The notes: generated from the sequence alone by a model not told the origin. A DNA stretch of 64,000 bases from a virus (IMGVR_UViG_3300036778_000017:9981-73980), one strand, 5' to 3'. Counted from the stretch's first letter, positions 4,229-39,875 are shown. Translations and numbers: made by a program.

Positions 4229-4466
4229 CACTACCCCAGATGCCCCTGCACTACCCGGGTACCTTGACCCCAGAACGCCATTAGCGGTCCGCCCAGCTGC
4301 CTTCCGGCCGCCCGATAGGTAGGTAGCGCCCGGCCCGGCCCAGCGGCCCGGGCGGGCCGCCCTAGCAGGCCGCCGGGTGGCCAAAACCGGCCCCCTACGG
4401 CACCATTGCGCAACGCCCTAGCCCGGGCAGGCCCCCGGGGCTGGCCAATGGGCCGCCGGGCTAGGG

Positions 4467-4497
4467 GCGCTCGCGAGCCCGTGCTGCTCGCGAGCGC
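4467..4497. terminator. 12-bp inverted repeat at a convergent junction
   Basis: gcgctcgcgagc-N7-gctcgcgagcgc; no U-tract, so function is inferred. Confidence 0.4.
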
Positions 4498-4579
4498 TGA
4501 CGGCGGCCCAGCTTGTACGCGCGCTGGACCGGACCGCCGTGTTTCGCGCGTCACTGCCCTCTTGGCAGTGCGCTCCTTC

Positions 4580-4798
4580 TCACGGCCACGTCCACCACAC
4601 GACCAGCACCGCGAGCGCGACCAGCACTGTCACCACCATTCCCTCCCAAGGCACCGTCCGTCCTCCCACCACCAGCTGTCCCTGCTTCCACATGGCCTCC
4701 TCGTCGCTGCGCGCCACGTCTCCGCAGCTGCACACCATGCGATAGTCGAGACTGTCCCCAATGAACGTCATGTCGTAGTCATGTCTGTGGATCTTCAT
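4580..4798 (-). CDS. small membrane protein
   Basis: 72 aa with hydrophobic C-terminus; last gene of the leftward early cluster. Confidence 0.55.
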   Translation of the reverse strand: MKIHRHDYDMTFIGDSLDYRMVCSCGDVARSDEEAMWKQGQLVVGGRTVPWEGMVVTVLVALAVLVVWWTWP

Positions 4799-4969
4799 CC
4801 TTGTCCTCCCATGGCATCTTCGGCAGCGTCGGCTTCGGAGCGCGAGCGGCCCGCGCCGACAAGGCCGCTCTGCGCTGCATTCCCTTGGCGTCCATGTCGC
4901 TCAGCGTGCGGTGCATGCCCGTCCGCAGCGAGATGAACGTCCTGGCTCTAGGCTTGTCCTTGTCGTCTT

Positions 4970-5404
4970 CTACCACTGCGAGAACCCTCCACTTCCTCTC
5001 TCGTTGGCGTAGATGCGCTTCAGCGCCGCGTACTGATCATCAGTCAGGTACGACAGCCTCTCCCAGAAGTCCCTCAGACTGGCGATGAACATGAGAGTGC
5101 TGACGTCGTATCTGCGCTCGCCCACGGCGTCGAACATGGGGCCTATGTCGTCGTCCGTGCGCTTCGTGAAGTCCCTCGGGCTGGGTCTCGGCGCCCTCGC
5201 GCCCCACGCGGACCCCCGCTTGGACGGAGGCGTGCGATAGTCGGGGGTCGGTGCGAGCTTGGGACCGTGGAGCACTTCGGCCCACGTCATCTGCTCAGCC
5301 TCCAGCATTCTGTTGGCGAGGCGCACGGCGTTCAGGGCCTCGCCGTCTCCGGTGCTGAACGTCATGCCCATGATCTGCGCCAGTCGCTTGCGATCAAGTG
5401 CCAC
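4970..5404 (-). CDS. hypothetical protein with DUF2786-like N-terminal helix pair
   Basis: RLAQIMGMTFS..GEALNAVRLANRML resembles the DUF2786 pattern. Confidence 0.55.
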   Translation of the reverse strand: MALDRKRLAQIMGMTFSTGDGEALNAVRLANRMLEAEQMTWAEVLHGPKLAPTPDYRTPPSKRGSAWGARAPRPSPRDFTKRTDDDIGPMFDAVGERRYDVSTLMFIASLRDFWERLSYLTDDQYAALKRIYANERGSGGFSQW

Positions 5405-5594
5405 CGAACTGCTCCCTCGATATCACCTCGCTCTCCGCTGGCGTCAGGACGTGAGCCGCTCTCTGGACACGGACCCATGCCTGATTGCGACGGAAACGTA
5501 TCTCGCGCTCCAGCGTCGCGATCTGTTCGAGCTCGTTGCTGACAGAAACGTAGACCGCGAGCGCTTCTCTGTACTCCGTCAGGTTGTCGGCCAC
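5394..5594 (-). CDS. hypothetical protein
   Basis: GTG start refined; overlaps neighbours. Confidence 0.5.
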   Translation of the reverse strand: MADNLTEYREALAVYVSVSNELEQIATLEREIRFRRNQAWVRVQRAAHVLTPAESEVISREQFGGT

Positions 5595-5842
5595 ACCACG
5601 CCCCTCTTTGTCAGCTGTCGATGAAGGAACATCGCCATGCGAATGGCGTCCTCGCGCCACTCGAGCTCGCGGCCGTTGTCCGGACCCGCGAACATGAGGC
5701 GCTCTGCCCACGTGGCGAGGATTTCGCTGTGCACGTAGTCGCCGCGAACACCCATTCTGTCGTTCTGCTCGGCTATCAGTATCCACTGCGCCATGTCGCG
5801 GACTATCGGCTGTATGAGATGCGGATTGGTTGGATCTCTCAT
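5579..5842 (-). CDS. hypothetical protein
   Basis: start refined to MRDPTNPH with GGAG RBS. Confidence 0.6.
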   Translation of the reverse strand: MRDPTNPHLIQPIVRDMAQWILIAEQNDRMGVRGDYVHSEILATWAERLMFAGPDNGRELEWREDAIRMAMFLHRQLTKRGVVWPTT

Positions 5843-6132
5843 GATGGATCTCCGAGCCGGATCGTGAACGTGCCGACGACGTCCTCGCCGTGCCTCCACA
5901 GCCCGATGATTGCAGGATCACCGTGCTTCCAGAAGCTGACGCGTGCACCGCTCCTGATGGTCGAGCTCCGGTCGCTCAGCGTGTACTGCCCGTCGACGTC
6001 GTGTCCCTCGAACACGCGTGTCCCGATCGAGATGACTAGCCTGTTGTTCTGCTTGATCACCTTGCACTTGTCGCTGTCCGAGCCTCGGTCGCCGTAGTAC
6101 ATAGTGATCTCTGCATCGCGATACGTCGTCAT
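5839..6132 (-). CDS. hypothetical protein
   Basis: ATGA coupling on both sides. Confidence 0.6.
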   Translation of the reverse strand: MTTYRDAEITMYYGDRGSDSDKCKVIKQNNRLVISIGTRVFEGHDVDGQYTLSDRSSTIRSGARVSFWKHGDPAIIGLWRHGEDVVGTFTIRLGDPS

Positions 6133-6542
6133 GTGACTTCTCCCTTCGGCCAGAAGTACGGCATGTCTGGCTTCACTCTCCAACCCATGCGGCCGTACCA
6201 CGCGGGGTCCTTCCTCAGAAGATTGCTCTTGTGGCTGTCGTGCAGGCGCGGATCACCGAGCCAGCGCGGAGCCTCGTCGCCGTGGTCGAGCATGTGGGGC
6301 ACGACCATGTTGTTCACGTAGCCTCTCCTCACCCACTCCTCCACGATTGCATCCATGTACTGCACCAGCTGCGACACGTGGCCGTCCCACATCGTCACGG
6401 CCGGGTGGAAGCGCCAGCTGGAGCCGGGCACCGTGAGGGCCATGATTATCTGGTAAGACTCCACGCGCTGCTTTCCGAGCCGCTTCCAATCGAGACACTT
6501 GGCCGAGCGCGCGAAGTCCGGATATGGCAGGAACGTGATCAC
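6129..6542 (-). CDS. pyrimidine-dimer DNA glycosylase-like protein (MSMEG_6728 family)
   Basis: ITFLPYPDFARSAKCLDWKRLGKQRVE..HPAVTMW..WLGDPRLHDSHKSNLLRKDP..Y..YFWP. Confidence 0.85.
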   Translation of the reverse strand: MITFLPYPDFARSAKCLDWKRLGKQRVESYQIIMALTVPGSSWRFHPAVTMWDGHVSQLVQYMDAIVEEWVRRGYVNNMVVPHMLDHGDEAPRWLGDPRLHDSHKSNLLRKDPAWYGRMGWRVKPDMPYFWPKGEVT

Positions 6543-7916
6543 TCCGGGCCTCCGTTGAGCATGATGTCGCAGATGGCTGGAGCCTGCCTGTCGCTGATGA
6601 CGGCCTCCGCGAACGGCACGTCGTGCTCGTCGAAAAGAACTATGTGCGGCCCGCAGTTCGGGTCGCCGCACCACATGACCGAGATGTGATGCGCTGTCTT
6701 GATCTGGCGTCTGTCTAGCGCCCGATACTTCTTGCTCACTGTCATTCTCCCTTGATGCAGTCTTTTCCATCCTTGCCGCAGCGCACTTGATAATCAAATA
6801 CGTCGCGCGGATTGTTCATGTTGTACACTGTCCAAGTGCTGACCAGACCAAAGTGCTTGGTCTGTGCTTCCTTCTGGCAGTTGGCCACTGACGTAGTTCG
6901 ATACCATTCTTGGTTTGGAGATATAGCCCAACCAGAATATGTGATGAGACAAGCAACTATGATACCTTCCATGTCCATTCTCCTTATGACTTCTTCCCTC
7001 CTGCCCACGGCAGTTCATCGTGAAACATCACCATCGGTCCTTGCTTGTGAGGCGTGCCCACTATCACGGACGAGGACGTCAGGTGCTGCTGCCTTGCGTT
7101 GAAGACAATCCTCGACACGCCCGTCGATGTCAGCGATGGATACGATGGTGGTTGTCTGCTGGACGAGTCTGCTGAGACAACGTCTGGTCGCACGACAGGA
7201 TGCTTCTTGCGGAGGCGCTCTATCTCCGCCCTGCGCTTCTTCCACTTCACTCGCCATACCCCACCTTCAGCTTGAATGAGAAACGCACCTTGCCTCTCAC
7301 GCGGATGCTGGTGCGTGCACCGACGTGCAGAATGCTGATGTCCTCCAGCAGAACGCGCTCGCTGACGAGCTCGCGGAACCGTGCGCGTAGCCAGTCCTGC
7401 AGAGTGCTCGTGCATCCGCCGATTGTCTGGACGACCTGACCGTCTGGGGACCACGGAACGTAGTGCCTGACCTCCGGCGTCGGGATCACTGTCACGATCG
7501 CGTCACGAGGAATGTCGCCGAATGACCTGATCTTACTGACCATGGCGTATCCTCGCTGCTAGTTCGAACGCCTTCAGGTCGTCGAACTCGTGAACGAACT
7601 GGAACAGCTTCAGCCACGAATCGGCCGTCAGCTTCTCGTAGTGACTAGGCTCCATGTTCAGCTTCACCATGACCTCGTCCGCGCCCGGCATGTTCAGGAG
7701 CTCCATCGCCTTGCGCACCGTGGCCGCGCGCTCAACCACGCGCTGACGCGGGATCTTATTCACGATCGCGATGCACGCCTGCACGCCCAGAATGAAGTGT
7801 CGTGCCTGATCAGGGCTGAGCTCGTGATACACCTTGGACTCTGCCTCGGTGATCAGCTTCTCGAATTGTCTCTCACCCGGTATCAATGCGGGTATCAATG
7901 AGAATGATAGTGCCAT
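6539..7916 (-). other. run of about 5 small hypothetical genes (6539-6745, 6742-7008, 7015-7257, 7247-7543, 7533-7916)
   Basis: abutting or overlapping minus-strand ORFs; no recognisable motifs. Confidence 0.55.
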
Positions 7917-7941
7917 TGCTCTCTACTCCTCTCATGCAAAT

Positions 7942-7967
7942 AGGGACCGCCCCGAAGGACGGTCCCT
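7942..7967 (-). terminator. intrinsic terminator-like hairpin with UUCG loop
   Basis: 11-bp stem, G-U wobble on the minus strand, cUUCGg loop, followed by AUUU, right after the 7986 gene. Confidence 0.7.
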
Positions 7968-7985
7968 TGCTCGGCCTCGAGCGCG

Positions 7986-17018: not shown

Positions 17019-17040
17019 GCCAGTACTCCATTTCGTGGCT

Positions 17041-17079
17041 GATGCGGAAGTGCATCACGGAACAGTGCGGACACTGTTC
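17041..17079 (-). promoter_or_regulatory. two-hairpin leader element, copy 2
   Basis: GATGCGGAAGTGCATC (17041-17056), 3 nt, then gaacagtg-cgga-cactgttc (17060-17079). Confidence 0.55.
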
Positions 17080-17630
17080 TGCGATACACTGCGGAGAGCC
17101 CGGTATATGACCGGGATCTCCGTCAGTGAATTCGGTTACCGTGACACATTGAAGTGGCGGACTATTACGACCAGAAGTAGGAAACCAGCTGCTAGGTGCG
17201 GGGGCTAATGCGCTAATGGGGCGCGGCCTAAATGCGTAGCAACTACCTATCTAACCCTTGCTTGGTTGCTGCCGTGTGTCGCGAGCGCGATCGGAACGGA
17301 CCGGCCACTGAGGGCCCTGAGCAAACCAGATGGAGGCTATCTGGAAGGGTGCTGCCGTGTAGGGGCGTTGGCCGGGCACCAGCCGGTAGGCACAACCTAG
17401 CACGCCCCGGGCGGCCCGGCGACGCACTGGTGGACATGGTTAACAGATCACTGCCAAGGGGCGGCCCGGGGCGACCCAATACGCGCATATATAAAGGCTG
17501 GAGCAGGAGCGGCCCCAAAGTGGCTACAGGGGCAGCGCCCAGCTGCGCGGGCCGCACCAGCGGCCACTCTATGGTCCGCGCGGACCGTCCTGGGACCCGT
17601 GGCGCGGACCCGGGGCGGCCCGACCGGACG

Positions 17631-17646
17631 TTAACCCTTTCTTAAC
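17631..17646 (+). promoter_or_regulatory. CtrA binding site TTAA-N7-TTAAC
   Basis: ttaa ccctttc ttaac, intergenic, in a genome where TTAA is rare. Confidence 0.7.
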
Positions 17647-17748
17647 CACGTTCACAATATCCTCCTAGGCAGGCCCCGGGCAACCCGGGCAGGCTGGTGC
17701 CTGCCCCGCCGCGCTGGTGCGGTTGGGATAACGCAAGGGTAGTAGCCA

Positions 17749-18001: not shown

Positions 18002-20164
18002 CTAGGCAGCAAGTAACTCAGGAGCCCGGCCCTTGCCGGGCTTTCTTGCGTCTGAGAACGGATACTTGGCCGTTCCCCACGTCTCGCCATACTCCTCGTC
18101 AACGCGCATCGGCACGCTGATTCTGATCGCGTTGCGCATTATCTCACCAATGGCCTGCCCGTCCTTCTCGCGTGTCAGCGAGAACGCGAGCTCATCGTGC
18201 ATCTGAAGCATCGGTATGAAGCCAGCCCGGGCGCACATGGCCATAGCCTTCTTCGTCTGGCGAGCAGCGGAACCCTGGATCAAGCGGTTCATCGCCTTGC
18301 GCGTGTCGGCACGGCGAAGCTTCTTGCCGAACCACGGATGGCCCTTGGTCTCGCAGCGCTCGAGCGCCTCCTCCAGTCGGCAGCTGTTCATGGCGAACTT
18401 GTACGCATAGCCGCGCCGCTTCTCCTCACGGTCCAGCCACTTCGGCTCAAAGTCATCGAAGTGCGATCGCGCCTTGTCGATCATGCGGATGTATCCGCGG
18501 TCCTCGGCATAGCCCTGACACAGCGCGTTCAGCTGCTTGACGAACGGCATCTCGCCGTCGTACTGCCCCATCACCTGCTCCGCCTCATCAAGCGTCATGC
18601 CGGTCATGGCAGCAAACTTCTTGACCCCCGCTCCGTACGCCTTCGCGAAGTTCACGTCCTTGGCGCGGCGTCGAGTGAGACCAGTCATCTCGACCACCAG
18701 ATTGTGGAAGTCGGTGTTCGGGTCACTCAGGTACTTGGCCACGGCCTCGTCGGCCTTCTTGCAGCCGAGTAGAGCAGCGTAGTGCACGATCAGGCGATAC
18801 TCCTGCTGCGAGTAGTCCGGAGCGAACCACAGCTGCCCCCTCTCCGGGAGGAACGCCATGCGCAGATACTTCGCGATCATCTCCGTCGTGTGCCAGCCCT
18901 CCACCGGGTCCGGCCGAGATGGCATCTGCTGAAGCGGGGGTTCCGAATAGCTGAACCGATGCGAGCGTGTTCCACCGTCCTCAGTCTTGAACTGATTGAT
19001 GTTGGCGTGTATGCGGCCCTCGTACACTGAGTTCTTGAGATACGCCCTGACGAACTTGGTCGCGGCCTCGTGGCACTGCTTCGCCTCTGCTATCGCCCGG
19101 GGCAGCGGATGCTCGGACGCGCGCATCCAGTCCTTGCTGAACTCAGTCTCTACCTCGCCGTCCTCGTCCTCGCCGCGCATGTACTCTTCTTCATCCACAC
19201 CGTGGACCTGACATGCCTGGATGAGCCATGACTTCTGGCGTATCTCGTCGATGGACACTCTCTGCTTCGTGATGTCGTATATCTTGTTGAGCGCGAATTG
19301 ATACTGCTTCATGAGCTCGTTCTCGAGCCAGTCCAGCCTCTCCTCGTTGACGCGGACACCACGCTTGCGCATGGCGTGCACCACCGGGATCAATTCCATC
19401 TCTAGATCGTAGGCACCTGTCAGGTCCTGCTCCTCGATCTGCGGTACCATCTTCTCGAATGCCAGCAAAGTCGAGCGCGCGTCCTGTTCGGCATACGGTC
19501 CCACGTATCTGGCTGGCATCTTGGCGAGATACTTCTTGACGTCGTCGCCCTTGTATCCGAAGCTGAACGCTGCGTCTCGCAGCATTGCCTCGTCCTTGCG
19601 CTCTACACCACACCACTCAGCAATGGAGTCCAGGCTGTACGCACTCTTCTGTCCCTTCTTGGCCCTGCGGTTCTCATCAATCATCATGGCCTGACAGCCG
19701 ATGTCATTGATGAACTCGTAGTCCGGTAGCTCGAGACCGAGGCCGCCGCTGTACTCTCCGGCGTTGAACCATCCTAGATCATATCCCGCGTTGCAGAAGA
19801 TGCGACGCTGTCCCTTCTTGGCCCTCAGCAGATGCTGGACCCACTTCTTGGCTCGCGAGCGATCGAAGCAGTTCGTGTCCGGATGTTCGATCGGCACGTA
19901 GATCGAGCGGACCTCTCCGCCCTGTCTCCATGCCGCTGACACACCGGCTATGTATCCTCCAGCTGAGCGAGAGTTGAACGCCCAGCCCGGTCCTGCTCCT
20001 CGTATTATACCATTGTCCAGTTCCTCGCTGTCTATCGCCACGTCCTGGACACGACTGAGGTCTGGCAGTTCCCCCGGCACGACCCAGCTGCTCTCTGGCG
20101 TTATCAGGGGCATCTGGCTCGGATCCAGCTTTGTTCTGCGCGGCTTGATGGATCTTGTCTTCAT
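18002..20164 (-). CDS. polA: DNA polymerase, family A (3'-5' exonuclease + polymerase)
   Basis: exo I AIDSE, exo II NAGYDL, exo III YAEQDA; motif A APDYSQQEYRL, motif B RRAKDVNFAKAYG, motif C LQMHDEL; start refined via ATGA overlap. Confidence 0.95.
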   Translation of the reverse strand: MKTRSIKPRRTKLDPSQMPLITPESSWVVPGELPDLSRVQDVAIDSEELDNGIIRGAGPGWAFNSRSAGGYIAGVSAAWRQGGEVRSIYVPIEHPDTNCFDRSRAKKWVQHLLRAKKGQRRIFCNAGYDLGWFNAGEYSGGLGLELPDYEFINDIGCQAMMIDENRRAKKGQKSAYSLDSIAEWCGVERKDEAMLRDAAFSFGYKGDDVKKYLAKMPARYVGPYAEQDARSTLLAFEKMVPQIEEQDLTGAYDLEMELIPVVHAMRKRGVRVNEERLDWLENELMKQYQFALNKIYDITKQRVSIDEIRQKSWLIQACQVHGVDEEEYMRGEDEDGEVETEFSKDWMRASEHPLPRAIAEAKQCHEAATKFVRAYLKNSVYEGRIHANINQFKTEDGGTRSHRFSYSEPPLQQMPSRPDPVEGWHTTEMIAKYLRMAFLPERGQLWFAPDYSQQEYRLIVHYAALLGCKKADEAVAKYLSDPNTDFHNLVVEMTGLTRRRAKDVNFAKAYGAGVKKFAAMTGMTLDEAEQVMGQYDGEMPFVKQLNALCQGYAEDRGYIRMIDKARSHFDDFEPKWLDREEKRRGYAYKFAMNSCRLEEALERCETKGHPWFGKKLRRADTRKAMNRLIQGSAARQTKKAMAMCARAGFIPMLQMHDELAFSLTREKDGQAIGEIMRNAIRISVPMRVDEEYGETWGTAKYPFSDARKPGKGRAPELLAA
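18023..18047 (+). terminator. intrinsic terminator-like hairpin
   Basis: agcccggc-cctt-gccgggct followed by ttctt. Confidence 0.6.
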
Positions 20165-20340
20165 CTGAACAGCTTGTCTAACAGAGGATACCACGCCACG
20201 CCGACGTAGATTATGAACGTGTACGTGATGTTGAACACCGTGACACTATTGGTCTTGCTGTGCACGTACAGAGGAATGACGATCGCAAAACCCGCGACCG
20301 TCACGTAGTAGTAAGCTCGTACGAGAGCCTCGATGATCAT
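20161..20340 (-). CDS. small membrane protein (59 aa; below the ORF track cut-off)
   Basis: hand translation MIIEALVRAYYYVTVAGFAIVIPLYV..FIIYVGVAWYPLLDKLFR; coupled to both neighbours. Confidence 0.65.
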   Translation of the reverse strand: MIIEALVRAYYYVTVAGFAIVIPLYVHSKTNSVTVFNITYTFIIYVGVAWYPLLDKLFR

Positions 20341-21410: not shown

Positions 21411-21966
21411 ACTCTGTCTCCATCTGGGTGCGTGTCTTCATGTAGCGGTGTATCGCCGGGATCAGTGACTCGTGATCCCGGTACTCCTTGGTGTCTCTCA
21501 TGCCCTCTAGATCGATGAGATTGGCAGACACGGCGTTCATCATGCGATCGATGATCGTGATGGCGTACTTGTTGCCCATGTTGTACTCGCGCCAGCCGTG
21601 CTCCCACATCTCGATGTTCTCGCATGCCTTGAACACGTGGCGCTCGAACTGTGAGAGTGGATGCTTCAGCTGAGGAACACCGATTCGCTCGTTCTGCAGC
21701 TTCTCCACGATGTTCTCGGCCTTCTGCATCGCAGGCCGGAGCTCGCCGATCATGATCTTGAACGGGTACGGTATGTCGCCGGCCATCTCGCCCATGTCGT
21801 GCTTCACCGTGTAGATCAGAATGTGACGTGGCGCTGATGGCCACACCGTTAGAATGATGCGCAGGATCTGCCACGAGTGCTCGCCTACGGACTGCTGATT
21901 ATGGACCGCCCACGTGTGATAGCGCCGGATTTCTCCTGACGCCCTCGGGTCCTCCGTGAGGTTCAT
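21391..21966 (-). CDS. HD-domain 5'-deoxynucleotidase-like (YfbR-like)
   Basis: IRRYHT..QSVGEHSW..KHDMGE..GDIPYP. Confidence 0.85.
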   Translation of the reverse strand: MNLTEDPRASGEIRRYHTWAVHNQQSVGEHSWQILRIILTVWPSAPRHILIYTVKHDMGEMAGDIPYPFKIMIGELRPAMQKAENIVEKLQNERIGVPQLKHPLSQFERHVFKACENIEMWEHGWREYNMGNKYAITIIDRMMNAVSANLIDLEGMRDTKEYRDHESLIPAIHRYMKTRTQMETEYGTTRT

Positions 21967-23030
21967 CGGGACCTCGGGTTCGTGCGATGCTCGAACCACT
22001 GGATGACAGCCTGTCGCCAGTCCTCGGCCTCGATCATGAACGCCATGTCGCGGGCGGAGTGGCGCATGGCAGACTTCCAGCGATTGTGCGCGATGAAGAT
22101 CGGCTCCGCGGTATTGCGGAACCATGAGTTCTTGTAGTCGTGCACCGTGGTCTCGACGCCCTCTGTCACGAGGTTCTTCTGCCACTCCATGAACTTCTTG
22201 AGATCAGCGTCGAAGAAGTCCCATTCCTTGGCCATGGGCAGCGCTCGGATCTTCAGGCCCTCGTAGGTGCTCAGTGTCGGCTCGGTCCCTACCTTCTCGA
22301 GCGTCTCCTCGTACGCGTGATAATTCCAGGACATCTGGTACATCTTGCCGACCAGCACGCCAACCCGGCCTGCCATGTACTCCTGCAAGATGCTGAAGTG
22401 AACGGCGTTGGCACCATACGCCCCGAGCACGATATCGTTGCTCCTGCACGAGATGAACATGTCCAGGAATGGCAACGGTTCGTCAGCGAAGACCTCCTTC
22501 CGAACCCGGAAGTAGACGTGAGTATTGCACGGCCGATCCTTCCAGACGCCATTCAGGTCGTTGGCTCCGTACTGAATATCGCACTCGCCGACCCTGCATC
22601 CCTGCTCGCGGGCATCCCACATCTGCAGAACGCACTGTCTGTCATCGTCCCTGAAGCGGAGGCGCTGAACGATGTGCTCCAGCTGATCGAAGCCCAGCGC
22701 CTGTCGCCATCGATGACCATACGCGCCGTGAACGCGGCCGTCCTCCTCGGCGAACCGAGTACCGAAGTCCGTGATGTATCTGTTCAGGGCGCTCACGTCG
22801 TCGCGCCCCGACAGCATCCATAGCGACTCGAACAGATGGAAGAACGGATTAGCCCCGCGCTTCTGGTCGAAGAGCACGCGCTGGGTCGGCTTGCGGTACA
22901 CGCTTGTCACCGGCATCGACATCACGCGCACCGGGCCGTTTCTGCTCGTCTCCCTTCGTCCCTCCGCGCCCATCAGACGCATGCCGCGCCAGTATAGCTC
23001 GTTGACGTCCTCACCCTCAATTACGTGCAC
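21963..23030 (-). CDS. thymidylate synthase-family enzyme, probable dUMP hydroxymethylase
   Basis: catalytic RPCN; RSND..GAN with Asn at the dUMP-specificity position; YHAY; linked to hmU kinase genes; start refined to GTG 23030. Confidence 0.85.
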   Translation of the reverse strand: MHVIEGEDVNELYWRGMRLMGAEGRRETSRNGPVRVMSMPVTSVYRKPTQRVLFDQKRGANPFFHLFESLWMLSGRDDVSALNRYITDFGTRFAEEDGRVHGAYGHRWRQALGFDQLEHIVQRLRFRDDDRQCVLQMWDAREQGCRVGECDIQYGANDLNGVWKDRPCNTHVYFRVRKEVFADEPLPFLDMFISCRSNDIVLGAYGANAVHFSILQEYMAGRVGVLVGKMYQMSWNYHAYEETLEKVGTEPTLSTYEGLKIRALPMAKEWDFFDADLKKFMEWQKNLVTEGVETTVHDYKNSWFRNTAEPIFIAHNRWKSAMRHSARDMAFMIEAEDWRQAVIQWFEHRTNPRSR

Positions 23031-23328
23031 TTGGTCCTCCTTCCTTGCTCTCCTGAATGATCTGATGCAGCGCTGCCGGAGTGGTCCGCGACATCTTGTC
23101 AATGTGCTTCGCGACCGCGTTGATGGTCTTGGTCTCCTGAAGATACAGCGTCTCATCGTAGGACAGCACTGTCACGTGCACCAGCCTCGCGACGATCTGC
23201 TCGACCGCGAATGCTATCATCTCCGGACACAGCCCCTCGAAGGTGTCGATCGCGTCGCATACCACCTGCTCAGCGTAGTCTTTTATGACCTGCTGCTTCT
23301 CAATGTCATCGATACATCTACACAGCAT
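23017..23328 (-). CDS. hypothetical protein
   Basis: coupled ORF between the UDG-like and TS genes. Confidence 0.6.
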   Translation of the reverse strand: MLCRCIDDIEKQQVIKDYAEQVVCDAIDTFEGLCPEMIAFAVEQIVARLVHVTVLSYDETLYLQETKTINAVAKHIDKMSRTTPAALHQIIQESKEGGPSARN

Positions 23329-23839: not shown

Positions 23840-24789
23840 TTACTTGAGACCCATGAAGATCAGGTTGTCAACGGCTACGCGTCTCTTGTCGTGCTTCAGG
23901 CCGAGGTCGTCCATTGCCTTGAAAAGCCTGATGGTCACGCGCCACGCCTGCTCGACCATCATCTGCTGTTGTGTGTCCTGAGGCTCCATGGAGTATTGAA
24001 TGGCCATCTCCCTCGCGATGGCTGGATCGAGCTCCTGTCTCACGACATTGCGATGCCAGTTCTCCAGCTGCGCTGCCAGAATGATTATGTTCATGTGATG
24101 CGCGATCGGTGGAAGGTCTGCAATCTTGATGCTAGTCATCTCAACAACTCCACGAGGCGTTCCATGTGATCAGCGGCGATCCTCGTTTTCTCGGCCGCGT
24201 ACTGTATCCTCTTCATGCTCATCTTTCGCGTGGCCAGCATGGTCACCAGCTGGAAGCCAGCCTCGCTGTGGACCTTGTGCGCGAGCACGAGCTCCTTCTC
24301 AATGTCTACTGGCGAACTCGCGGAGGAAGGATTTGTCTTCTTCCGAGAGGTCTTCTCTGTCGACTGCTCGAGCGACAAGCGCATCTGCCGCTCCGTCACC
24401 GTGGACGCGGTCGTAGAAGCGCTTTGCTTTTTCGACGCGACGCCTCTCGTGACGGTTCGTGCTCGTGACGTCCCTCCACGTGGTGTCTTCGCCTTGCTGG
24501 CCACGGTTGATCTTCTCCAGTTGTCTCTTGGCATTGACCCTGCGACGCTCCTTGTCGCTGAGCGTTGAGTAGCTCATCTGATAGAGACCTCCATTCCATT
24601 CACGATCATGATCTTTTCTCCAGAACCTCTCATGACGAACGCCTCGAATGTCTTGAGCTCCCACTGGAGCGCACCCTCGACGGCGTGCCGCTTCCCATCC
24701 TTGGTCTCGATCACTAGTCGCACGTCCTCAGACTGTCCGTTGGCGATCAGCCAGACCCTGAGTGCCTCCACTATCATGGAGAAATTCAT
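23840..24789 (-). other. three small hypothetical genes (23840-24139; one of the overlapping ORFs 24136-24534 / 24299-24664; 24574-~24789)
   Basis: minus-strand ORFs; frame choice in 24136-24664 is ambiguous. Confidence 0.45.
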
Positions 24790-25031
24790 GACGTCCTCCA
24801 CGGCAGGCTCTGGTCGAATGCCTTGCTGAAGTGTCGTATCCTGCAGACCTGGAAGTGCCTCTCTGCCTGTCGATCGAGACACCAGCCCACGATGTACCAC
24901 TGCGAGCCATCGTGAGGATAATACTTGCTCTCGAGAAACCGAATGCCGGTAGGCACCACGCGCCGTTCCTCGTCATATCCCTCGTGATTGACATAGTCGA
25001 ATGTCACGACTTTCCCGTCCCAGACGCTCAT
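24786..25031 (-). CDS. stand-alone WYL-domain protein
   Basis: VTFDYVNHEG..RRVVPTGI..QWYIVGWCLDRQAERHFQVCRI. Confidence 0.85.
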   Translation of the reverse strand: MSVWDGKVVTFDYVNHEGYDEERRVVPTGIRFLESKYYPHDGSQWYIVGWCLDRQAERHFQVCRIRHFSKAFDQSLPWRTS

Positions 25032-25367: not shown

Positions 25368-25964
25368 TCACTTCCTCCCCAGAAGCAGAATGTGCCAGTT
25401 GCCGCCGCGAAACAGGACCGTCTCCTCGACGTCCCATCCCAGCTGCCTGATCAGGGCCAAGAACGGACGCTTGGCGTGCTCCGACGTGTTCGACTTCGGC
25501 AGGTACTTCTCGCCGAAGCGAATGGTGCACACGATGTTCTTCTTGGCGACGCGGCAGATCTCCTTTACCGTGGCACGCATGCCGTCCTGATCGATCAGGT
25601 CCAGAAAGCGCACGCAGATCACCATGTCTGCCGACTTGTCCTTCACCTCTAGGTTCGTGGCAGATCCCTGCTCCAGCTGAATGTGCTTCGCCTTGGCCCC
25701 GCGAAGTTTCTTCTTGGCGAGGTCGAGCATCGCCTCGCTGATATCGATGCCGAGCACCGTGCACGATGCCTTCGCATAGTCCTCGAAGAACCGGCCGGTT
25801 CCCACTGGAACGTCCAGGACTGTCCTTGGTTTCAGCTCCGCGATCCACGCTCCAACCGTCTCGTTCTCGAGGTTCCAGCGCGCCTGCTTCTTGCGAATGT
25901 CCTCGTACGTCTCGGCCTTGCGGCCGCGATACTTCTTGCTCGTCTGCTGCAGACTGACCATCAC
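25368..25964 (-). CDS. class I SAM-dependent methyltransferase
   Basis: motif I VLDVPVGTGRF; GIDISEAML; GSATNL; ADMVICVRFL. Lacks DPPY/NPPY/PC DNA-MTase motifs. Confidence 0.9.
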   Translation of the reverse strand: MMVSLQQTSKKYRGRKAETYEDIRKKQARWNLENETVGAWIAELKPRTVLDVPVGTGRFFEDYAKASCTVLGIDISEAMLDLAKKKLRGAKAKHIQLEQGSATNLEVKDKSADMVICVRFLDLIDQDGMRATVKEICRVAKKNIVCTIRFGEKYLPKSNTSEHAKRPFLALIRQLGWDVEETVLFRGGNWHILLLGRK

Positions 25965-26506
25965 TCATCTCCATCGTGCGGCCCGAGCCACCGCCTGATC
26001 ACCTCGAAGCAGGCGTCTCGGTCGCCCACCACTGTCTCGCAGTGAAAGTTCACCGCGTCTCGGTGAACCTTGTCGTACGTCTTCTTGATCGACTTCTCGG
26101 CGATCCTGTGCCCACGCTTGCGCACGTCTCTGAGGCACGTGGCCACGTCCGTGTTGAGCACGACGACGCGAACTTCGAACTTCTCAGCCACGAGCTCGTT
26201 GACACGAGCCACGCCATCGCTCATGTTCTTCCCCTCCATGATGACGTCGTGGCCAGACCGAGCCGCCCAGCGCGCGATCTCGTATGCCTCGTCAAGCGAC
26301 TTCAGCGTGTCGATGCCCCCGTTCGCAATCTGGTAGTGACCGGGGGTCACGAGACACTTCCCAGCGACGGTTCGGCCGTGCAGCGTGTACAGCGGCTTGA
26401 CGCGAGGCGGAGCCATGAGATCGCGATGCTTCGTGTAGAGCGCCACGACGCGTCGCACCAGATGGCTCTTGCCGGAGCCAGATGTTCCCCTGACTGATAT
26501 GATCAT
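25961..26506 (-). CDS. P-loop kinase, 5-hmU DNA kinase P-loop domain-like
   Basis: IISVRGTSGSGKS Walker A; GGIDT; VIMEG; CLRDVRKRG lid; next to the helical kinase partner. Confidence 0.8.
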   Translation of the reverse strand: MIISVRGTSGSGKSHLVRRVVALYTKHRDLMAPPRVKPLYTLHGRTVAGKCLVTPGHYQIANGGIDTLKSLDEAYEIARWAARSGHDVIMEGKNMSDGVARVNELVAEKFEVRVVVLNTDVATCLRDVRKRGHRIAEKSIKKTYDKVHRDAVNFHCETVVGDRDACFEVIRRWLGPHDGDE

Positions 26507-27498
26507 AGCCCTGCCGCCAGCCTCGCCTTGTCCAGTTGGTCCACGAGGCGAATGTAGAAGTCGCCACGGTTCCACTCGCGACGCTGCTCCCTGCCGATGT
26601 CCTCGCGATTGGCCATGAAGCGCTTCACGTCGATTGCCTTGCTGACCACGTACGGATCGGGATTGAACCCGGCCTTGCGAAGCATGCTGCCCGACTCTGG
26701 CTGGAACACCATCGGCAGTCCCGCGCTCAGCATCTCGTAGAACCGATTGGCCGGCGAGTGGAACTCCTCGCTGGACTTGCGGTCCTCGATGTACAGGCCG
26801 AGGCCAAACGAGCCGAGCGCACCGTAGAAGTTCTCGCCGATGGCTCCCATGTGCCGACACAGCGGATACTTCTTGGCGAACTTGTCTACCGGACTACTGA
26901 TCACAGTCTCGACCGCAGGGCGAGTGAAGTAGCGATCGAACAGCGGCACGCGACTAGACTTGCCGCTCCCGTCGCGGAACGAGCCGTAGTACAGAAGCGT
27001 GTCCTTGGCATCGGCGCGCCGCTTCTTGATCTTGCTCTCGCTGTACTGCTGGTCGAACGTCAGCATGTTCCAGTTGACGTAGTGACTGCCGGGCAGCGTG
27101 TACCACTTCTCGCACGTGCTCCAGAAGATCGTGCGCTCCTTCCCCTCCTTCTTTCGCGTGACGAACGCCTTGCGGAATGGTGACTCGGCACCAGCATCGT
27201 CCTTCGGCGGGATGATGGTGTAGTCGTTCTGGACCCACACCACGCGCTTCGCACCGAGGATCGCTCGAGACAGAGGCTCAAGAACCTTGCTGAACCCATA
27301 CGCGCCGTTCACTATGATCAGCACGTCTAGGTTCGTCATGTCGCCGATCTCAGCACCGCACACCAGCGGAATGTCAGACATGGTCATGTCGCCGAGTGTC
27401 TTCTGCAGCCAGCGCGCTATTCGCACGCTCGCGACCATGCTGTTCTCGCTGATGCGCACGAAACTGAACATCGCGATTTTCTTCTTTCTACCCGCCAA
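26503..27498 (-). CDS. GT-B glycosyltransferase, T4 beta-glucosyltransferase-like
   Basis: LDVLIIVNG..F, VWVQND, LLYYGSFR and SPANRFYEMLSAGLPMVF parallel T4 BGT segments as recalled (DRLIVVNS, LRVWETMAS); TTG start with GGAGG RBS. Confidence 0.75.
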   Translation of the reverse strand: MAGRKKKIAMFSFVRISENSMVASVRIARWLQKTLGDMTMSDIPLVCGAEIGDMTNLDVLIIVNGAYGFSKVLEPLSRAILGAKRVVWVQNDYTIIPPKDDAGAESPFRKAFVTRKKEGKERTIFWSTCEKWYTLPGSHYVNWNMLTFDQQYSESKIKKRRADAKDTLLYYGSFRDGSGKSSRVPLFDRYFTRPAVETVISSPVDKFAKKYPLCRHMGAIGENFYGALGSFGLGLYIEDRKSSEEFHSPANRFYEMLSAGLPMVFQPESGSMLRKAGFNPDPYVVSKAIDVKRFMANREDIGREQRREWNRGDFYIRLVDQLDKARLAAGL

Positions 27499-27672: not shown

Positions 27673-27908
27673 CTCTTGAATTCCCACGTACAGGTCGCCT
27701 TGTCGCCCGGGCGAACGTCAGGCTTGTTGTCACAGCGCACGGCGGTTCGGCTGTCCACGAACGTGATCCACCAGCCGTCCGATACCTCCCTAGTGCTGGC
27801 GTCCGGCCCCGTGCCTCCGGCCCACTCAGTCCGGAAGCGCTCGACGACGTCCTTCACCGTGCAGACCTGCACGTACTGCGTGATCTTCTCGCTCACTACC
27901 TCAGGCAC
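27669..27908 (-). CDS. hypothetical protein
   Basis: 79 aa, overlaps both neighbours. Confidence 0.6.
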   Translation of the reverse strand: MPEVVSEKITQYVQVCTVKDVVERFRTEWAGGTGPDASTREVSDGWWITFVDSRTAVRCDNKPDVRPGDKATCTWEFKR

Positions 27909-28881
27909 GATACACTCCTCTTGGCTTGCCCTCCTTCAGGCGAACACGCTCGTACTTGTCGAACTCACAGAGCGTGTGCTCCACGTCACGCATCTCCCAG
28001 TCCGGCCACTCCTTCTTCGTCATGCCCATGGCCACGCGCATCCGGCTCCAGTGCTCGGCTCTGGAGCTCTCGTCCAGGATCACTACCATGTACTTCAGCA
28101 TCTCGTCGCGTCCGCTGAACTTCGCGGTCTTGTCGCGGCCCATCACGCGGTTCAGCCCCCGCTTGCACCCGGGACCGGGGGATGCCCACGTGTCGATGTC
28201 GTTCGCCTTGTTGAGCAGGAATGTGTGACGCAGGTCAGTCACGATCTCGTACGAGTGGAAGTTGCCGAAGTATGGCTGCTCGCGCAGCCACTCCCAAGCC
28301 CCCTCGAGACTGTACTCGTTTCTTCGTGGATTGTCGTTCAGCCAGTGCCGCCAGTCGCTCTTCCTCCAGAAGTTCTGCAGGACCCAGAGCACGCCGTCCA
28401 GCTTCGTCATGCCAGCCGGCGAGGAGATGATGTAGGCACCAGTCACGTACGGACCGCGCGGCGTTCTGCTCACCAGCGCGCGCTTCAGCGGCCTGACGTC
28501 GCCCCTCGCAGCGAACTCCTCGAAGGCGCCGAAACCCTTCTTGAGATCATTGTCCTGGAACATCGCAACGCCACTCTCGATCCTGTTCAGCATGCGAAAC
28601 ACGACGGTCGCGAGCAGAACGCGCTCGTCCTTGTTCCTGTGCAGCGGCCCGCGAACGTTGTCTGCGAACCACTTGGTTGTCTTGTCCAGCTCCCGGAAGA
28701 CGTTGGTGAACCGGAAGCGGTAAAGGATAGGATCATCAGTCTCCCACTGCGGTCGCAGTCGCTTGTAGAGATAGATCTGGTGACGGGCCTGCGCGTAGTT
28801 GAAGAAGCGACGCAGGCCCTCTCTCGGCAGCTTGATCTCCTTCACTTCTTCCTCCACGCACCGAGGTTCTGCCGACGCCAC
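27901..28881 (-). CDS. 5-hmU DNA kinase helical domain protein (aGPT-Pplase1 family)
   Basis: WETDDPILYRFRFTNVFRELDK..FGNFHSYEIVTDL..GPGCKRGL..DVEHTLCEFDKY. Confidence 0.85.
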   Translation of the reverse strand: MASAEPRCVEEEVKEIKLPREGLRRFFNYAQARHQIYLYKRLRPQWETDDPILYRFRFTNVFRELDKTTKWFADNVRGPLHRNKDERVLLATVVFRMLNRIESGVAMFQDNDLKKGFGAFEEFAARGDVRPLKRALVSRTPRGPYVTGAYIISSPAGMTKLDGVLWVLQNFWRKSDWRHWLNDNPRRNEYSLEGAWEWLREQPYFGNFHSYEIVTDLRHTFLLNKANDIDTWASPGPGCKRGLNRVMGRDKTAKFSGRDEMLKYMVVILDESSRAEHWSRMRVAMGMTKKEWPDWEMRDVEHTLCEFDKYERVRLKEGKPRGVYRA

Positions 28882-35531: not shown

Positions 35532-35559
35532 TGTTCAGTCCACAAGTCCGAGAGAAAGT

Positions 35560-35583
35560 GGGACCGCCCCGAGGGGCGGCCCC
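35560..35583 (-). terminator. intrinsic terminator-like hairpin
   Basis: 10-bp stem with G-U on the minus strand, CUCG loop, ACUUUCUCU tail; shares gggaccgccccga with the 7942 hairpin. Confidence 0.7.
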
Positions 35584-35595
35584 GGATAGTGTCGC

Positions 35596-37157: not shown

Positions 37158-37252
37158 GCTGTGATCTCCACAAGTACCTGCCGAGGGTTAGCGTGGCAGG
37201 GGTTACAAGCATGGCACGGGCCGTGTTCCGTTACCATGGGGTTACTTTGGAC

Positions 37253-37261
37253 TGTGCATAA
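37253..37261 (-). promoter_or_regulatory. DnaA box (TGTGCATAA); a second near-match CTGTTCATAACTTT lies at 37426-37439
   Basis: fits TTWTNCACA, centred in a ctttggac/gtccaaag inverted repeat, in the divergent intergenic region. Confidence 0.55.
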
Positions 37262-37655
37262 GTGTCCAAAGCGAGGGCCGCAGCGCCCTTGTGGTCAAGC
37301 ACTGCGGCCCCGGCCCGGGTGCTCACCAGCCGCCCTTGTCGTGCGCGCACTGCGAAGGACAGTGCCCAAGTTGGCGGGGTAGCAGGCTGAAGGGTGCCAC
37401 GGCCCGCGTTCCACTACAAGCCGCCCTGTTCATAACTTTCCGGGGGCCGTGGCCCTATCGCGCGCCTCCGCCAGCTAGATGCGCCGGCGAACTTGAACGT
37501 TCACGCAGATCATGCGGACACCCCGATAACGAGCAGGATGACCTCACGTGTGCGCTTACGCACGCATCTAGCTGGCAGAGGCGCGCTATGCGAGGCTTGC
37601 AACGGAACCGGGGCCGTGGCATCCTTCTTGCCCAACCCCCGCCTGAAGGATCCCA

Positions 37656-39188
37656 GTGCAGTACGTCTCCAAGACCAAGCCCATGAAGCACCAGACGGCC
37701 GCAGCGCTCGCAGCGTTTCACGCGCCAGCTAGGCCGAGCCGTGACGACAATTTCGCGTATCTCATGGACATGGGCACGGGAAAGTCGAAGGTCGTGCTGG
37801 ACGAGTGGGGAGCGGGGGCCGTGAACAGTGAACTGCCGAACCTTCTAGTGGTCGCGCCAGCTGGCTCGTATCGCAACTGGTTTCAGGGCAAGAACGAGAT
37901 ACAGAAGTCGGAGCTAGACATGCATCTGCCAGACGAGCTCCGCGAGCGCATGCTCGTGAACCACTGGCGGAGCGGCTCGCCTCGCGAGCATCGCGAGAGC
38001 CTAGCGGAGTTCCTGCGAACCAAGGACCGACCCCGCGCGCTGTTCGTCAACGTCGAGGCACTGTCCAGCGTCGAGAAGGCGCAGGAGCTCGTGGAGGAAT
38101 ATCTCGAGGGCGGCAGAACCTACATGGCGGTCGACGAGAGCACGACCATAAAGAGCCCGGACAGTCTGCGCGGGCGGTACATCACGAACGTCGGGCAGCG
38201 CGCCAGCTGCCGTCGCATCCTGACAGGTCTGCTGACGCCACGCTCCCCGCTGGACGCGTGGGGTCAGTTCAATTTCCTGGACTGGCGCATCCTCGGCTCG
38301 CCGAGCTACTTCGGGTTCAAGCGTCGCTTCGCGATCACGAAGAAGATGCTGGTGGACGCGGACTACGACGACAATCGCGAGCCGATCGAGGGAACCGGCC
38401 GGAAGATAGAGGTCGTTGTCGGCTATCGCAATCTCGAGGAGCTCCACGAGCGGATCTCGAGGTACAGCTACCGGGTACTGAAGGAGGATTGTCTCGATCT
38501 CGCGCCGAAGATATTCCTGACGAGAGAGGTCGAGCACACCAAGGAGCAGGCGCGGATGTACGCGGAGCTCCGGGCCAATGCGACGACGGCCATCATGCGT
38601 GGCGAGCTAGAGGAGAGCTACGTCTCCGTCGACATGATGCTCCAGATGATGATCCGGCTGCACCAGATCAATCTGGGATACGCGGTGAATGATGATGGCG
38701 ACATACGCGACCTGCCAGAGAATCGCACCGACCAGATCATCGAGATCCTGGACGAGCACGACGGCAAGACTGTGATATGGTCACCGTTCATTCATCGGAT
38801 AGAGGTACTGGCTGAGAAGTTGAGGAAGGAGTATGGCCCCAAGTCCGTTGCAATGTTCTACGGACAGAACAGGAGCACGCGCCACTTGGACGAGGCGCGG
38901 TTCATCGACGACCCCGAGTGCAAGATAATGATTGCCTCGCAGGCGGCCGGAGGTCGTGGAAACACTTGGGTCTGTGCGAACCTGAATATCTATGACAGCA
39001 ATAACTATGACCTAGAGCAGCGTCAGCAGAGCGAGGATCGAACCCACCGAAAGGGGCAGCTGCGAAAGGTGACATACGTGGACCTGATGACGCCGGACAC
39101 CGTGGACTATCGGTTCGTGCACGCGCTCCGGAACAAGTACGACATGGCGACGCAGATCACTGGAGAGCGCATGCGTGCGTGGATATAG
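37656..39188 (+). CDS. SNF2-family helicase
   Basis: YLMDMGTGKSKV, AVDESTTIK, ILTGLLTP, QSEDRTHRKGQ. Confidence 0.92.
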   Translation: MQYVSKTKPMKHQTAAALAAFHAPARPSRDDNFAYLMDMGTGKSKVVLDEWGAGAVNSELPNLLVVAPAGSYRNWFQGKNEIQKSELDMHLPDELRERMLVNHWRSGSPREHRESLAEFLRTKDRPRALFVNVEALSSVEKAQELVEEYLEGGRTYMAVDESTTIKSPDSLRGRYITNVGQRASCRRILTGLLTPRSPLDAWGQFNFLDWRILGSPSYFGFKRRFAITKKMLVDADYDDNREPIEGTGRKIEVVVGYRNLEELHERISRYSYRVLKEDCLDLAPKIFLTREVEHTKEQARMYAELRANATTAIMRGELEESYVSVDMMLQMMIRLHQINLGYAVNDDGDIRDLPENRTDQIIEILDEHDGKTVIWSPFIHRIEVLAEKLRKEYGPKSVAMFYGQNRSTRHLDEARFIDDPECKIMIASQAAGGRGNTWVCANLNIYDSNNYDLEQRQQSEDRTHRKGQLRKVTYVDLMTPDTVDYRFVHALRNKYDMATQITGERMRAWI

Positions 39189-39458
39189 CGGTGCAACCTG
39201 TAGTGCCCCGCCCGGGTGCCACTGGTATTTAGGTGTTCCCCGCCAGCATGCCCTAGAACGCCATTAGCGGACCGCTGGATGGCCCTGCCCAGTTTTGGCT
39301 ACCACCCTAGCGCCCCGGGGGCCGCCAGCGCACCAGCGCCCGGCCGCCCGGGGCTGGCGGGGCGCGCAAACCCGGGCCGGGCAGCTGCCCGGGCAGGGCA
39401 GGGGCCGCCCGCGCCCGGGCCGCAGGCGCGGCCACTGGAGGCCGCGACAGCGCCGCGC

Positions 39459-39875
39459 CTAGCTGTCCGCTCCGATGTTGAACGTGACGGAGCCACTGAG
39501 AAACTTCACGCTCGATCCGATGGCGACAGTGATCGGACCGCCCGCCACTGCTCGAGACGCGTACATGTGACCGGCCGAGGCGTCGTCGAACAGCGCGAAG
39601 TGAGAGATGTTGACCGGCCCCGTCTCCGACAGACCCCAGTCAACGTCGATGTTGGACGTCAGCAGATGCAGCGCTCCGGACGCCAGTGCAGCGAACGTGA
39701 TGGACTGCCGCTTGCCCGCGCTCTTGACGGAGGCCCCGACCTCGGTGCCCGTGGTCTTCGGGTTGCCGTTGAACAGCCCGAGAAAGAGTGTCGTCGGCCG
39801 TGACGGCATGTCGGCCTGATTGTTCAGCCAGCGAAGCGTGATATTGCCGAAGTATGGAGTGAGATCAGAAGCCAT
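39459..39875 (-). CDS. phage tail fibre-associated small structural protein
   Basis: LFLGLFNGNP..ISHFALFDDASAG family pattern; last gene of the late operon. Confidence 0.65.
   Translation of the reverse strand: MASDLTPYFGNITLRWLNNQADMPSRPTTLFLGLFNGNPKTTGTEVGASVKSAGKRQSITFAALASGALHLLTSNIDVDWGLSETGPVNISHFALFDDASAGHMYASRAVAGGPITVAIGSSVKFLSGSVTFNIGADS

Follow-up and report, generated by a model that had tools for sequence, protein, structure and literature searches.

TC/GA-free non-coding islands at conserved positions in a siphovirus-type phage clade with putative hydroxymethyluracil hypermodification genes

Precedents exist for dinucleotide-specific modification of phage DNA, namely GA (DpdA), TG/TC (hydroxymethyluracil kinase) and NTC (5mYOX97; PMC13229309). 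About 97% of the GA sites in Pseudomonas phage iggy bear dPreQ0, written by DpdA, and GA is the established DpdA motif in both iggy and CAjan (PMC10484667). Thymidine is hypermodified via 5-hydroxymethyldeoxyuridine (5-hmdU) in M6, ViI, phiW-14 and PaMx11 (PMC5889632, PMC8989533); gp54 of M6 is a proven 5-hmdU DNA kinase, and M6 and PaMx11 carry an amino-acid:DNA transferase (PMC8989533). A TG/TC site preference has been suggested for 5-hmdU hypermodification (PMC6449724), and the purified M6 kinase was reported to modify TG, protecting NcoI sites (PMC6449724, PMC8989533). The phage T-dioxygenase 5mYOX97 shows an NTC preference, and is of a kind often linked to glycosyltransferases (PMC13229309). 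Only for a handful of phage hypermodification enzymes is the sequence specificity known, and to determine it one currently needs virion DNA together with either mass spectrometry or the analysis of long-read signals. Here we describe non-coding islands devoid of TC and GA dinucleotides in the metagenome-derived IMG/VR record of a soil virus, IMGVR_UViG_3300036778_000017 (G000; 73,980 bp, completeness estimated at 96%), of which bases 9981-73980, a stretch of 64,000 nt, constituted the window whose coordinates are used below. No description of such islands was found in the literature searched, and a word search of PMC10484667 found no mention of intergenic depletion of the GA motif.

The longest TC/GA-free runs in the window were located at 39279-39438 (160 nt) and 4315-4471 (157 nt), followed by shorter runs at 17345-17421 (77 nt), 17182-17250 (69 nt), 1488-1554 (67 nt) and 17664-17727 (64 nt). 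All of these had been noticed in an earlier reading of the DNA alone (the sequence-only reading), whose coordinates proved to be the strict run interiors, while an additional run at 17508-17568 (61 nt) was absent from it. At the composition of the two longest runs, 12.6 TC/GA were expected in 4315-4471 (GC 0.79) and 10.8 in 39279-39438 (GC 0.84), and none of 20,000 mononucleotide shuffles was free of them in either case (0/20,000 for each), so that the depletion remained highly significant after composition correction (0 vs 11-13 expected); for the short runs, a composition-matched test gave P values from 5e-5 to 2e-3. The purge was specific to a single class: over the whole 74-kb genome the longest GA/TC gaps were 160 and 157 nt vs ~58 nt by chance, the longest gap of all the other classes agreed with the chance expectation (~60-400 nt), and the remaining nine dinucleotide classes were near expectation in the two main islands (A and B, below), with TA enriched. 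Coding windows held 8-13 TC+GA per 60 nt, in agreement with hand counts of 11 and 13 made previously on two coding lines. The reported richness of the islands in CC/GG, CCCGGG and CTAG was likewise borne out: CC/GG reached 28-31 per 100 nt vs ~13, 15 of the 35 CCCGGG sites in the window fell inside the islands, which add up to ~1.3 kb, and the pooled TC/GA-free runs of four genomes (1,735 nt in total) contained 16 CTAG vs 4.2 expected. Two further non-coding segments (1555-1670 and 1730-1819) had a normal TC/GA content; therefore, the island property is not a mere lack of coding.

Island A (4229-4579, GC 0.74, with 4 CCCGGG and 3 CTAG) lies between convergent genes as a non-coding gap, and is adjoined by the 3' end of a small conserved plus-strand gene (phrog_2165, 3740-4228). 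Its head carries a conserved 15-nt box, GAACGCCATTAGCGG (4273-4287, plus strand), which contains GA, a dinucleotide rare near the islands, and its TC/GA-free core (4315-4471) opens with TAGGTAGGTAG (4316-4326, plus strand), where three TAG stops, one per reading frame, were read directly. Island B (39189-39458, GC 0.77, core 39279-39438, 6 CCCGGG) is the non-coding gap between a plus-strand SNF2-type helicase gene (37656-39188), whose 3' end adjoins it, and a minus-strand fibre-like gene, and bears at its head a second copy of the box (39256-39270, plus strand). Island C (17019-17748, 5 CCCGGG) is a long co-directional gap downstream of the family A DNA polymerase gene (18002-20194, minus strand, 3' end towards the island), in which four TC/GA-free runs (17182-17250, 17345-17421, 17508-17568 and 17664-17727) alternate with segments of normal TC/GA content. 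Island D (1488-1554) is the 67-nt run in the leader of a NusG/RfaH-like gene (970-1482, minus strand), whose true start lies near 1482, as the M-A-R-(x)-RKRK beginning is conserved with the relative G001; the run ends beside a Shine-Dalgarno-like GAGGG on the minus strand, as read by eye. The divergent gap upstream of the helicase operon (37158-37460) was partly depleted, with 1-4 TC+GA per 60 nt vs ~7 expected and free runs at 37184-37227 and 37359-37389. The islands had been said to occupy the main convergent and divergent junctions, a description that fits A and B, both convergent, but not C, which is co-directional, nor the gene leader at 1488-1554, and only half fits the divergent gap.

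Several conventional identities were tried for the islands and rejected. No Rfam or tRNA match was found in them and their RNA folding energies (z -1.9 and +0.3) were not better than those of shuffles, which argues against a structured non-coding RNA. Neither intrinsic terminators (GC hairpin plus T-tract) nor sigma-70-type promoters (-35/-10 hexamers) were detected in islands A and B, and the two weak terminator/promoter hits in island C did not exceed the shuffle yield, so these signals do not account for the islands. A host-derived intergenic repeat, such as a repetitive extragenic palindrome or a miniature inverted-repeat transposable element, was discarded because GGCCGCCCGGGGC had 3 occurrences per alphaproteobacterial genome, about chance level.

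Relatives were collected by protein-guided searches, and are characterized here by the identity of their helicase to that of G000: 79% for G001, 78-80% for contigs L015 and L016, 61-62% for L017 and G002, and, among the more distant ones, 48% for G005, 45% for G003 and 43% for G004. Islands recurred at syntenic positions, downstream of the small gene (3740-4228), the SNF2 helicase gene and the DNA polymerase gene, with TC/GA-free runs of 268, 106, 86 and 85 nt in G001, 93 and 74 nt in G002, 149 and 90 nt in G004, 112 nt in L015, 84, 80 and 71 nt in L016, and 126 nt in L017. Counterparts of island A were found in G001 (the 268-nt run) and G002, where the homologues of the phrog_2165 gene are likewise followed by an island; those of island B in G001, L015, L016 and L017; and those of island C in G001, G002 and G004. 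The islands are hardly alignable among relatives, the region of the GAACGCCATTAGCGG box alone being semi-conserved; their position is kept while their sequence scarcely aligns, indicating a constraint on composition and not on sequence. The 12-mer GGCCGCCCGGGG occurs 8 times in G000 and G001 together, in islands only, and the G001 islands contain an 11-nt tandem array, CCCGGGGCCGC, in ~4.5 copies, plus GGGCAGG repeats; the 149-nt run of G004 is not GC-rich. G003 lacks non-coding gaps at the island positions and has no long TC/GA-free runs, and no unmodified relatives of the island clade were found. The contig ends of G002 (L117 1-236 and the end of L120) overlap by ~210 nt, positions 1-209 matching 70177-70385 with one indel; this overlap falls inside the island A equivalent, and the record is classed as linear.

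Dinucleotide observed/expected ratios were calculated for non-coding DNA, defined by annotation or by synteny, and each segment was shuffled to obtain the null distribution. GA/TC was depleted in G000 (0.58, z -7.7), G001 (0.52, z -10.2), G002 (0.69, z -4.9) and G004 (0.71, z -5.1), with CA/TG at 1.18 (z +3.2), 1.22 (z +4.7), 1.23 (z +3.6) and 1.29 (z +4.9), respectively. In the pooled non-coding DNA of G000 and its relatives GA/TC was the single depleted class, no other falling below 0.82, and CC/GG was at expectation (1.0). The same measure was calibrated on phages with reported motifs. Iggy and M6, which share a host species, displayed a double dissociation: GA/TC was low in iggy (0.57, z -8.6; CA/TG 1.03, z +0.6), whereas CA/TG was low in M6 (0.75, z -4.6; GA/TC 1.05, z +1.0). 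The values were 0.90 (z -1.8) for GA/TC and 1.00 (z -0.0) for CA/TG in CAjan, and 1.08 (z +1.8) and 0.89 (z -2.6) in Ab18. In iggy (MN029011; L131+L132) the GA/TC ratio was 0.79 genome-wide, 0.57 in intergenic DNA and 0.16 in right-end gaps, and GA/TC-free runs of 152-171 nt were present at 27694-27854, 39300-39456, 42700-42870 and 60074-60225 of that genome; of these, one lies at a convergent strand switch, another in a divergent gap, and some in annotated low-complexity genes.

The host signature and neutral composition were dismissed as sources of the islands. The longest TC/GA-free runs measured 51-56 nt in M6, Ab19, Epa5 and VPv64, matching chance, and 51-68 nt in three alphaproteobacteria (60 kb each), whose non-coding-like DNA was not depleted in TC/GA (1.15x expectation). 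No dinucleotide-free islands were found in the hydroxymethyluracil (hmU)-modifying phages M6, Ab18/19 and Epa5 or in the relative G003, and the intergenic GA/TC ratios of M6 (1.05), Ab18 (1.08) and CAjan (0.90) indicate that the depletion is not general to non-coding DNA. These controls exclude both the composition of the host and any constraint common to non-coding DNA.

Synonymous sites were informative in another respect. The genome-wide ratios of G000 (GA/TC 1.34, in genes; CC/GG 0.75; TA 0.46) were accompanied in the three alphaproteobacteria by values of 1.24-1.28, 0.81-0.84 and 0.37-0.39. At the codon junctions of G000, TC occurred at 1.6-1.9x expectation and CC at 0.47-0.57, a bias sharper than the alphaproteobacterial signature; in fourfold codons, third-position C fell from ~0.4 to 0.14-0.18 before C, and third-position T was favoured before G as before C. 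The junction excess of TC therefore reflects avoidance of CC, and selection for TC at synonymous sites was rejected. Thus, while the genome is TC/GA-rich, as had been remarked, its richness is mostly the alphaproteobacterial signature plus CC/GG avoidance, not TC selection. A uniform mutational process could not produce both CC-poor, TC-rich synonymous sites and CC-rich, TC-free islands in one genome.

The minus strand of G000 carries a set of genes that supports a 5-hydroxymethyl-dU pathway. These encode a thymidylate-synthase-family enzyme (21963-23156; Thymidylat_synt of Pfam, 9e-19), a candidate dUMP hydroxymethylase; a HMUDK_hel protein similar to M6 gp55 (27901-28881; Pfam, 4e-39); a P-loop kinase (25961-26506) related to M6 gp54, the 5-hmdU DNA kinase; and a protein resembling GT-B glycosyltransferases (26503-27498). 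The kinase gene is now placed within an open reading frame at 25961-26860, the C-terminal part of which matches phrog_800, consistent with the 'terminase small subunit' mislabel borne by M6 gp54. The 26503-27498 product matched no sequence family, and its assignment as a GT-B glycosyltransferase like the T4 beta-glucosyltransferase is a lead provided by T4 beta-glucosyltransferase clusters, in language-model features (0.97) and in predicted structure (TM score 0.74). A class I S-adenosylmethionine methyltransferase gene (25368-25964, minus strand) is of the small-molecule type (Methyltransf_25/11) and not of a DNA methyltransferase family.

A TET-associated glycosyltransferase (TAGT, PF20691) is encoded by G001, G002 and G004, and a radical-SAM/SPASM enzyme is also present in G001 and G004, where no P-loop kinase was detectable. 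The hmU clusters of the latter two (L006:8650-13916 in G001 and L127:3177-6674 in G004) bring together HMUDK_hel, PF20691 and radical-SAM/SPASM genes and show neither a detectable P-loop kinase nor a TET dioxygenase; by such a route, a base-J-like nucleotide may be formed in phage DNA through direct glycosylation. A link of the islands to the P-loop kinase was rejected, as G001 and G004 have islands and no detectable kinase, and G003 has a kinase and no islands. No amino-acid:DNA transferase was found in the island-bearing genomes, whereas one is present in the island-less G003. A second, low-GC lineage of IMG/VR contigs (L157-L161, GC 0.36) shows the same gene order of HMUDK_hel, TAGT, thymidylate synthase and polymerase; its GA/TC odds (0.75-0.78) lie below those of 17/17 helicase-relative loci (GC 0.37-0.56, range 0.96-1.34), as would be expected if hmU clusters of the glycosyltransferase type had a GA/TC-linked effect.

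In a second, independent test, the avoidance of palindromic hexamers was expressed as observed/expected under a fourth-order Markov model. For TG-only, TC-only, other-T and pure G/C palindromes, in that order, the ratios were 0.74, 0.04, 0.08 and 0.58 in M6; 0.82, 0.30, 0.60 and 0.74 in G003; 0.88, 0.77, 0.32 and 0.09 in Ab19 plus Epa5; and 0.91, 0.87, 0.59 and 0.68 in the island clade. M6 (NC_007809; L008+L009) contained 10 TC/GA palindromes without TG/CA vs 239 expected and TG-containing ones near expectation, an apparent read-out of its reported TG specificity from sequence. VPv64, which is related through its DNA polymerase and yielded no HMUDK_hel homologue, was flat across the palindrome classes, and two alphaproteobacterial samples showed no difference between palindromes with and without TC/GA. 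The difference between TC-only (0.87) and other-T palindromes (0.59) in the island clade was significant (P = 0.008), TC thus seeming to behave there as a protected context, and TG likewise.

With its family A DNA polymerase, primase, helicases, tape-measure protein and collagen-like fibre, G000 has the gene set of a siphovirus-type phage, as judged from sequence. The window has a GC content of 0.607 and most genes are on its minus strand. A near-identity search of deposited phage genomes retrieved no close relative, the polymerases nearest to that of G000 being ~30-34% identical. Capsid relatives (50-63% identity) lie within Inquilinus, Shinella and Profundibacterium genomes, a GcrA-like gene is found inside the hmU cluster of the relative G004, and GANTC is scarce in G000 (76 observed vs ~480 expected by arithmetic from GA and TC frequencies); taken together, these data indicate a probable alphaproteobacterial host. 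CCWGG is also strongly avoided in the whole genome (59 vs ~250 expected).

Once the other accounts above have been set aside, the economical reading that remains sees in TC/GA the context recognised by some clade-specific agent, and the one known special feature of the clade is its hmU-based, glycosyltransferase-type modification cluster. We therefore tentatively propose, giving it a chance just short of even, that TC (GA on the other strand) would be the context of the hypermodifying enzyme in the hmU/glycosyltransferase clade, and that it has been cleared from the long stretches of non-coding DNA. The islands would be stretches of non-coding DNA found where operons end, in leaders and at strand switches, in an alphaproteobacterial siphovirus clade in which thymine is replaced by 5-hydroxymethyluracil and then hypermodified, probably with a sugar, by an enzyme acting most likely at TC. 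Genes could not dispense with TC/GA, and long non-coding stretches could be purged of it by selection for unmodified DNA; the purged islands would carry none or far fewer of the bulky major-groove adducts, presumably glycans, and would then be open to RNA polymerase, regulators, termination factors, roadblocks, or replication or recombination proteins. The data lend partial support to the view of the islands as motif avoidance linked to DNA modification, in a new form and extending to a clade. That the T of 5'-TC-3' receives the hypermodification, as the sequence-only reading had supposed, is favoured by the pathway genes, the unique depletion, the parallels with iggy and M6 and the lesser avoidance of TC palindromes, but is weakened by the equal tolerance of TG palindromes and by the failed calibrations on CAjan and Ab18.

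A number of observations weigh against this proposal. The main inconsistency concerns TG: its palindromes are tolerated as well as those of TC (0.91 vs 0.87) and CA/TG is enriched in the islands (1.18-1.29), so that, if TG were also modified, the islands would not be modification-free. Neither iggy nor CAjan is read correctly by the palindrome test, and Ab19 and Epa5 tolerate TC palindromes yet have no islands. The non-coding-depletion calibration fails for CAjan (GA and GGC, barely depleted) and for Ab18 (other classes lowest), so the expectation that motif specificity can be read from the genome held for GA in iggy and TG in M6, two of the four phages. All the island-bearing genomes form a single clade, which makes the correlation with glycosyltransferases effectively n = 1, and the chemistry differs within it, G001 and G004 being without a detectable P-loop kinase. 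GANTC is strongly avoided despite containing both TC and GA, and the codon-junction enrichment of TC is explained by CC avoidance and not by TC selection. Finally, the proposal does not account for the GC content of 74-84%, for the CCCGGG clusters, or for what convergent-junction DNA devoid of promoter and terminator signals does.

If the proposed TC specificity were correct, the specificity of phage hypermodification could be read from the genome alone, including those of uncultured phages; the regulatory cost of bulky DNA adducts would be large enough to reshape non-coding DNA; and a probable, so far uncharacterised glycosyl-hmU chemistry in bacterial viruses would be indicated. The fuller version, namely base-J-like glycosylated hydroxymethyluracil at TC, unmodified GC-rich islands at operon ends, and a wider rule of motif shedding that would include GA in iggy and TG in M6, is one that we consider doubtful as a whole.

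The rival explanation that survives best, itself somewhat unlikely, is that the islands are functional GC-rich elements, either arrays of protein-binding sites or operon-end insulators, from which TC/GA is excluded for reasons independent of modification. Both transcripts might, for instance, have to be kept clear of Shine-Dalgarno cores (GGAG/GAGG) and anti-Shine-Dalgarno sequences (CUCC), both strands of the -35 element TTGAC, and the DNA as a whole of GANTC (CcrM) and GATC sites. This explanation would accommodate the confinement to islands of the 12-mer GGCCGCCCGGGG, and also CCCGGG, which clusters in islands and is the sole pure-G/C hexamer palindrome not avoided in the whole genome, GGGCCC, GGCGCC and CCGCGG all being avoided. 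CTAG and the three-frame TAG block provide stops in both directions, island D and the TC/GA-free run of G004 each end, by eye, at a motif of Shine-Dalgarno type shortly before the start of the following gene, and convergent junctions devoid of intrinsic terminators would need another stop device. However, avoiding these signals removes a subset of TC/GA only: by a rough estimate ~1/3 of those expected would be harmless, yet none is found in 157-268 nt. The same pressures should hold everywhere, and M6, Ab18, CAjan and the three alphaproteobacteria are not depleted; furthermore, relatives conserve neither the sequence of the islands nor the placing of motifs in them, and the 149-nt run of G004 lacks the high GC.

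Two other explanations are improbable. According to the first, TC/GA is modified but the purge is mutational, through error-prone or biased repair (TC to CC) that lets unconstrained DNA decay to a TC-free, GC-rich state devoid of function. This would explain at once the absence of TC/GA, the high GC and the fast turnover of island sequence, and is in line with the genome-wide GA/TC poverty of iggy (0.79). Nevertheless, a bias able to remove all TC from 160-270 nt should dominate synonymous sites, which point the opposite way (junction TC 1.6-1.9, CC 0.47-0.57) and led us to reject TC-to-CC decay; CC/GG is merely at expectation in non-coding DNA, and 1555-1670 and 1730-1819 are non-coding yet normal in TC/GA.

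The second, held at a similarly low level, is a different, unrecognised modification, of the G or A of GA or the C of TC, made by another enzyme. GA is the DpdA motif in iggy and CAjan (PMC10484667), the size of the signature matches that of iggy, and many replication-module genes have no family assignment. On the other hand, DpdA/TGT (PF01702) and homologues of FolE, QueC, QueD and QueE were absent from G000-G004, and tblastn of the iggy and CAjan DpdA/preQ0-pathway proteins against these five genomes gave only E > 0.01, by which a DpdA/7-deazaguanine system with a GA motif was rejected. A T-dioxygenase pathway of the 5mYOX (TET/JBP) type was likewise discarded, since no Tet_JBP dioxygenase (PF12851) was found in G000-G004 at E <= 0.1, as was a GA/TC-specific DNA methyltransferase, the cluster's single methyltransferase being of the small-molecule type. 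The weakest alternative, chance or a low-complexity by-product of GC-rich tandem repeats lacking TC/GA, can point to the CCCGGGGCCGC array and GGGCAGG repeats of the G001 islands but is very improbable, as most island sequence is unrepeated, none of the 20,000 shuffles was TC/GA-free, and such runs are found at the equivalent positions of five or more diverged genomes, not all of these runs being GC-rich.

Other features of the window were recorded along the way. A tail-fibre gene at 55007-57817 contains long arrays of collagen-like 9-nt (Gly-X-Y) repeats, of families D1-D4; a small WYL-domain protein is encoded at 24786-25031, within the nucleotide-modification region; and TGCAACC / GGTTGCA, probably an operator or promoter element, is repeated several times at 1670-1915, where the NusG-like gene and the plus-strand genes diverge.

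When compared with the known systems, G000 resembles iggy and M6 in different ways. It shares with iggy a strand-symmetric GA/TC motif at the dinucleotide level, a similar intergenic GA/TC ratio (0.57 in iggy vs 0.52-0.58 in G000/G001) and GA/TC-free runs (152-171 nt in iggy, where one lies at the convergent switch and one in a divergent gap); unlike iggy, which has DpdA/preQ0 genes and is GA/TC-poor genome-wide (0.79), G000-G004 have none of these genes and G000 is GA/TC-rich in its genes (1.34). With the 5-hmdU systems of the M6 type, G000 shares a thymidylate-synthase-family enzyme, a gp54-like P-loop kinase and a gp55-like HMUDK_hel protein; modification in those systems is partial and context-dependent, and the intergenic DNA of M6 is poor in its own TG/CA context (0.75). 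They differ in using amino-acid:DNA transferases, whereas the island clade has glycosyltransferases and no such transferase, and M6, Ab18/19 and Epa5 have no dinucleotide-free islands. 5mYOX97 illustrates that a phage thymidine-modifying enzyme can read an exact TC context, and TAGT-type enzymes occur in such clusters; the difference is that G000-G004 have no Tet/JBP dioxygenase, and hmU would come from the thymidylate-synthase-like hydroxymethylase before replication. Base J, which is glucosyl-hmU, marks convergent strand switches in kinetoplastids; it is enriched there, whereas in G000 the putative target is removed from strand switches. Vertebrate CpG islands, like these kinetoplastid regions, are regulatory DNA whose modification status is distinct from that of the rest of the genome; the CpG islands keep the target dinucleotide and escape the enzyme, whereas in the G000 islands the putative target is deleted from the sequence itself; if the proposed reading is true, TC-free unmodified islands would be the inverse of CpG islands.

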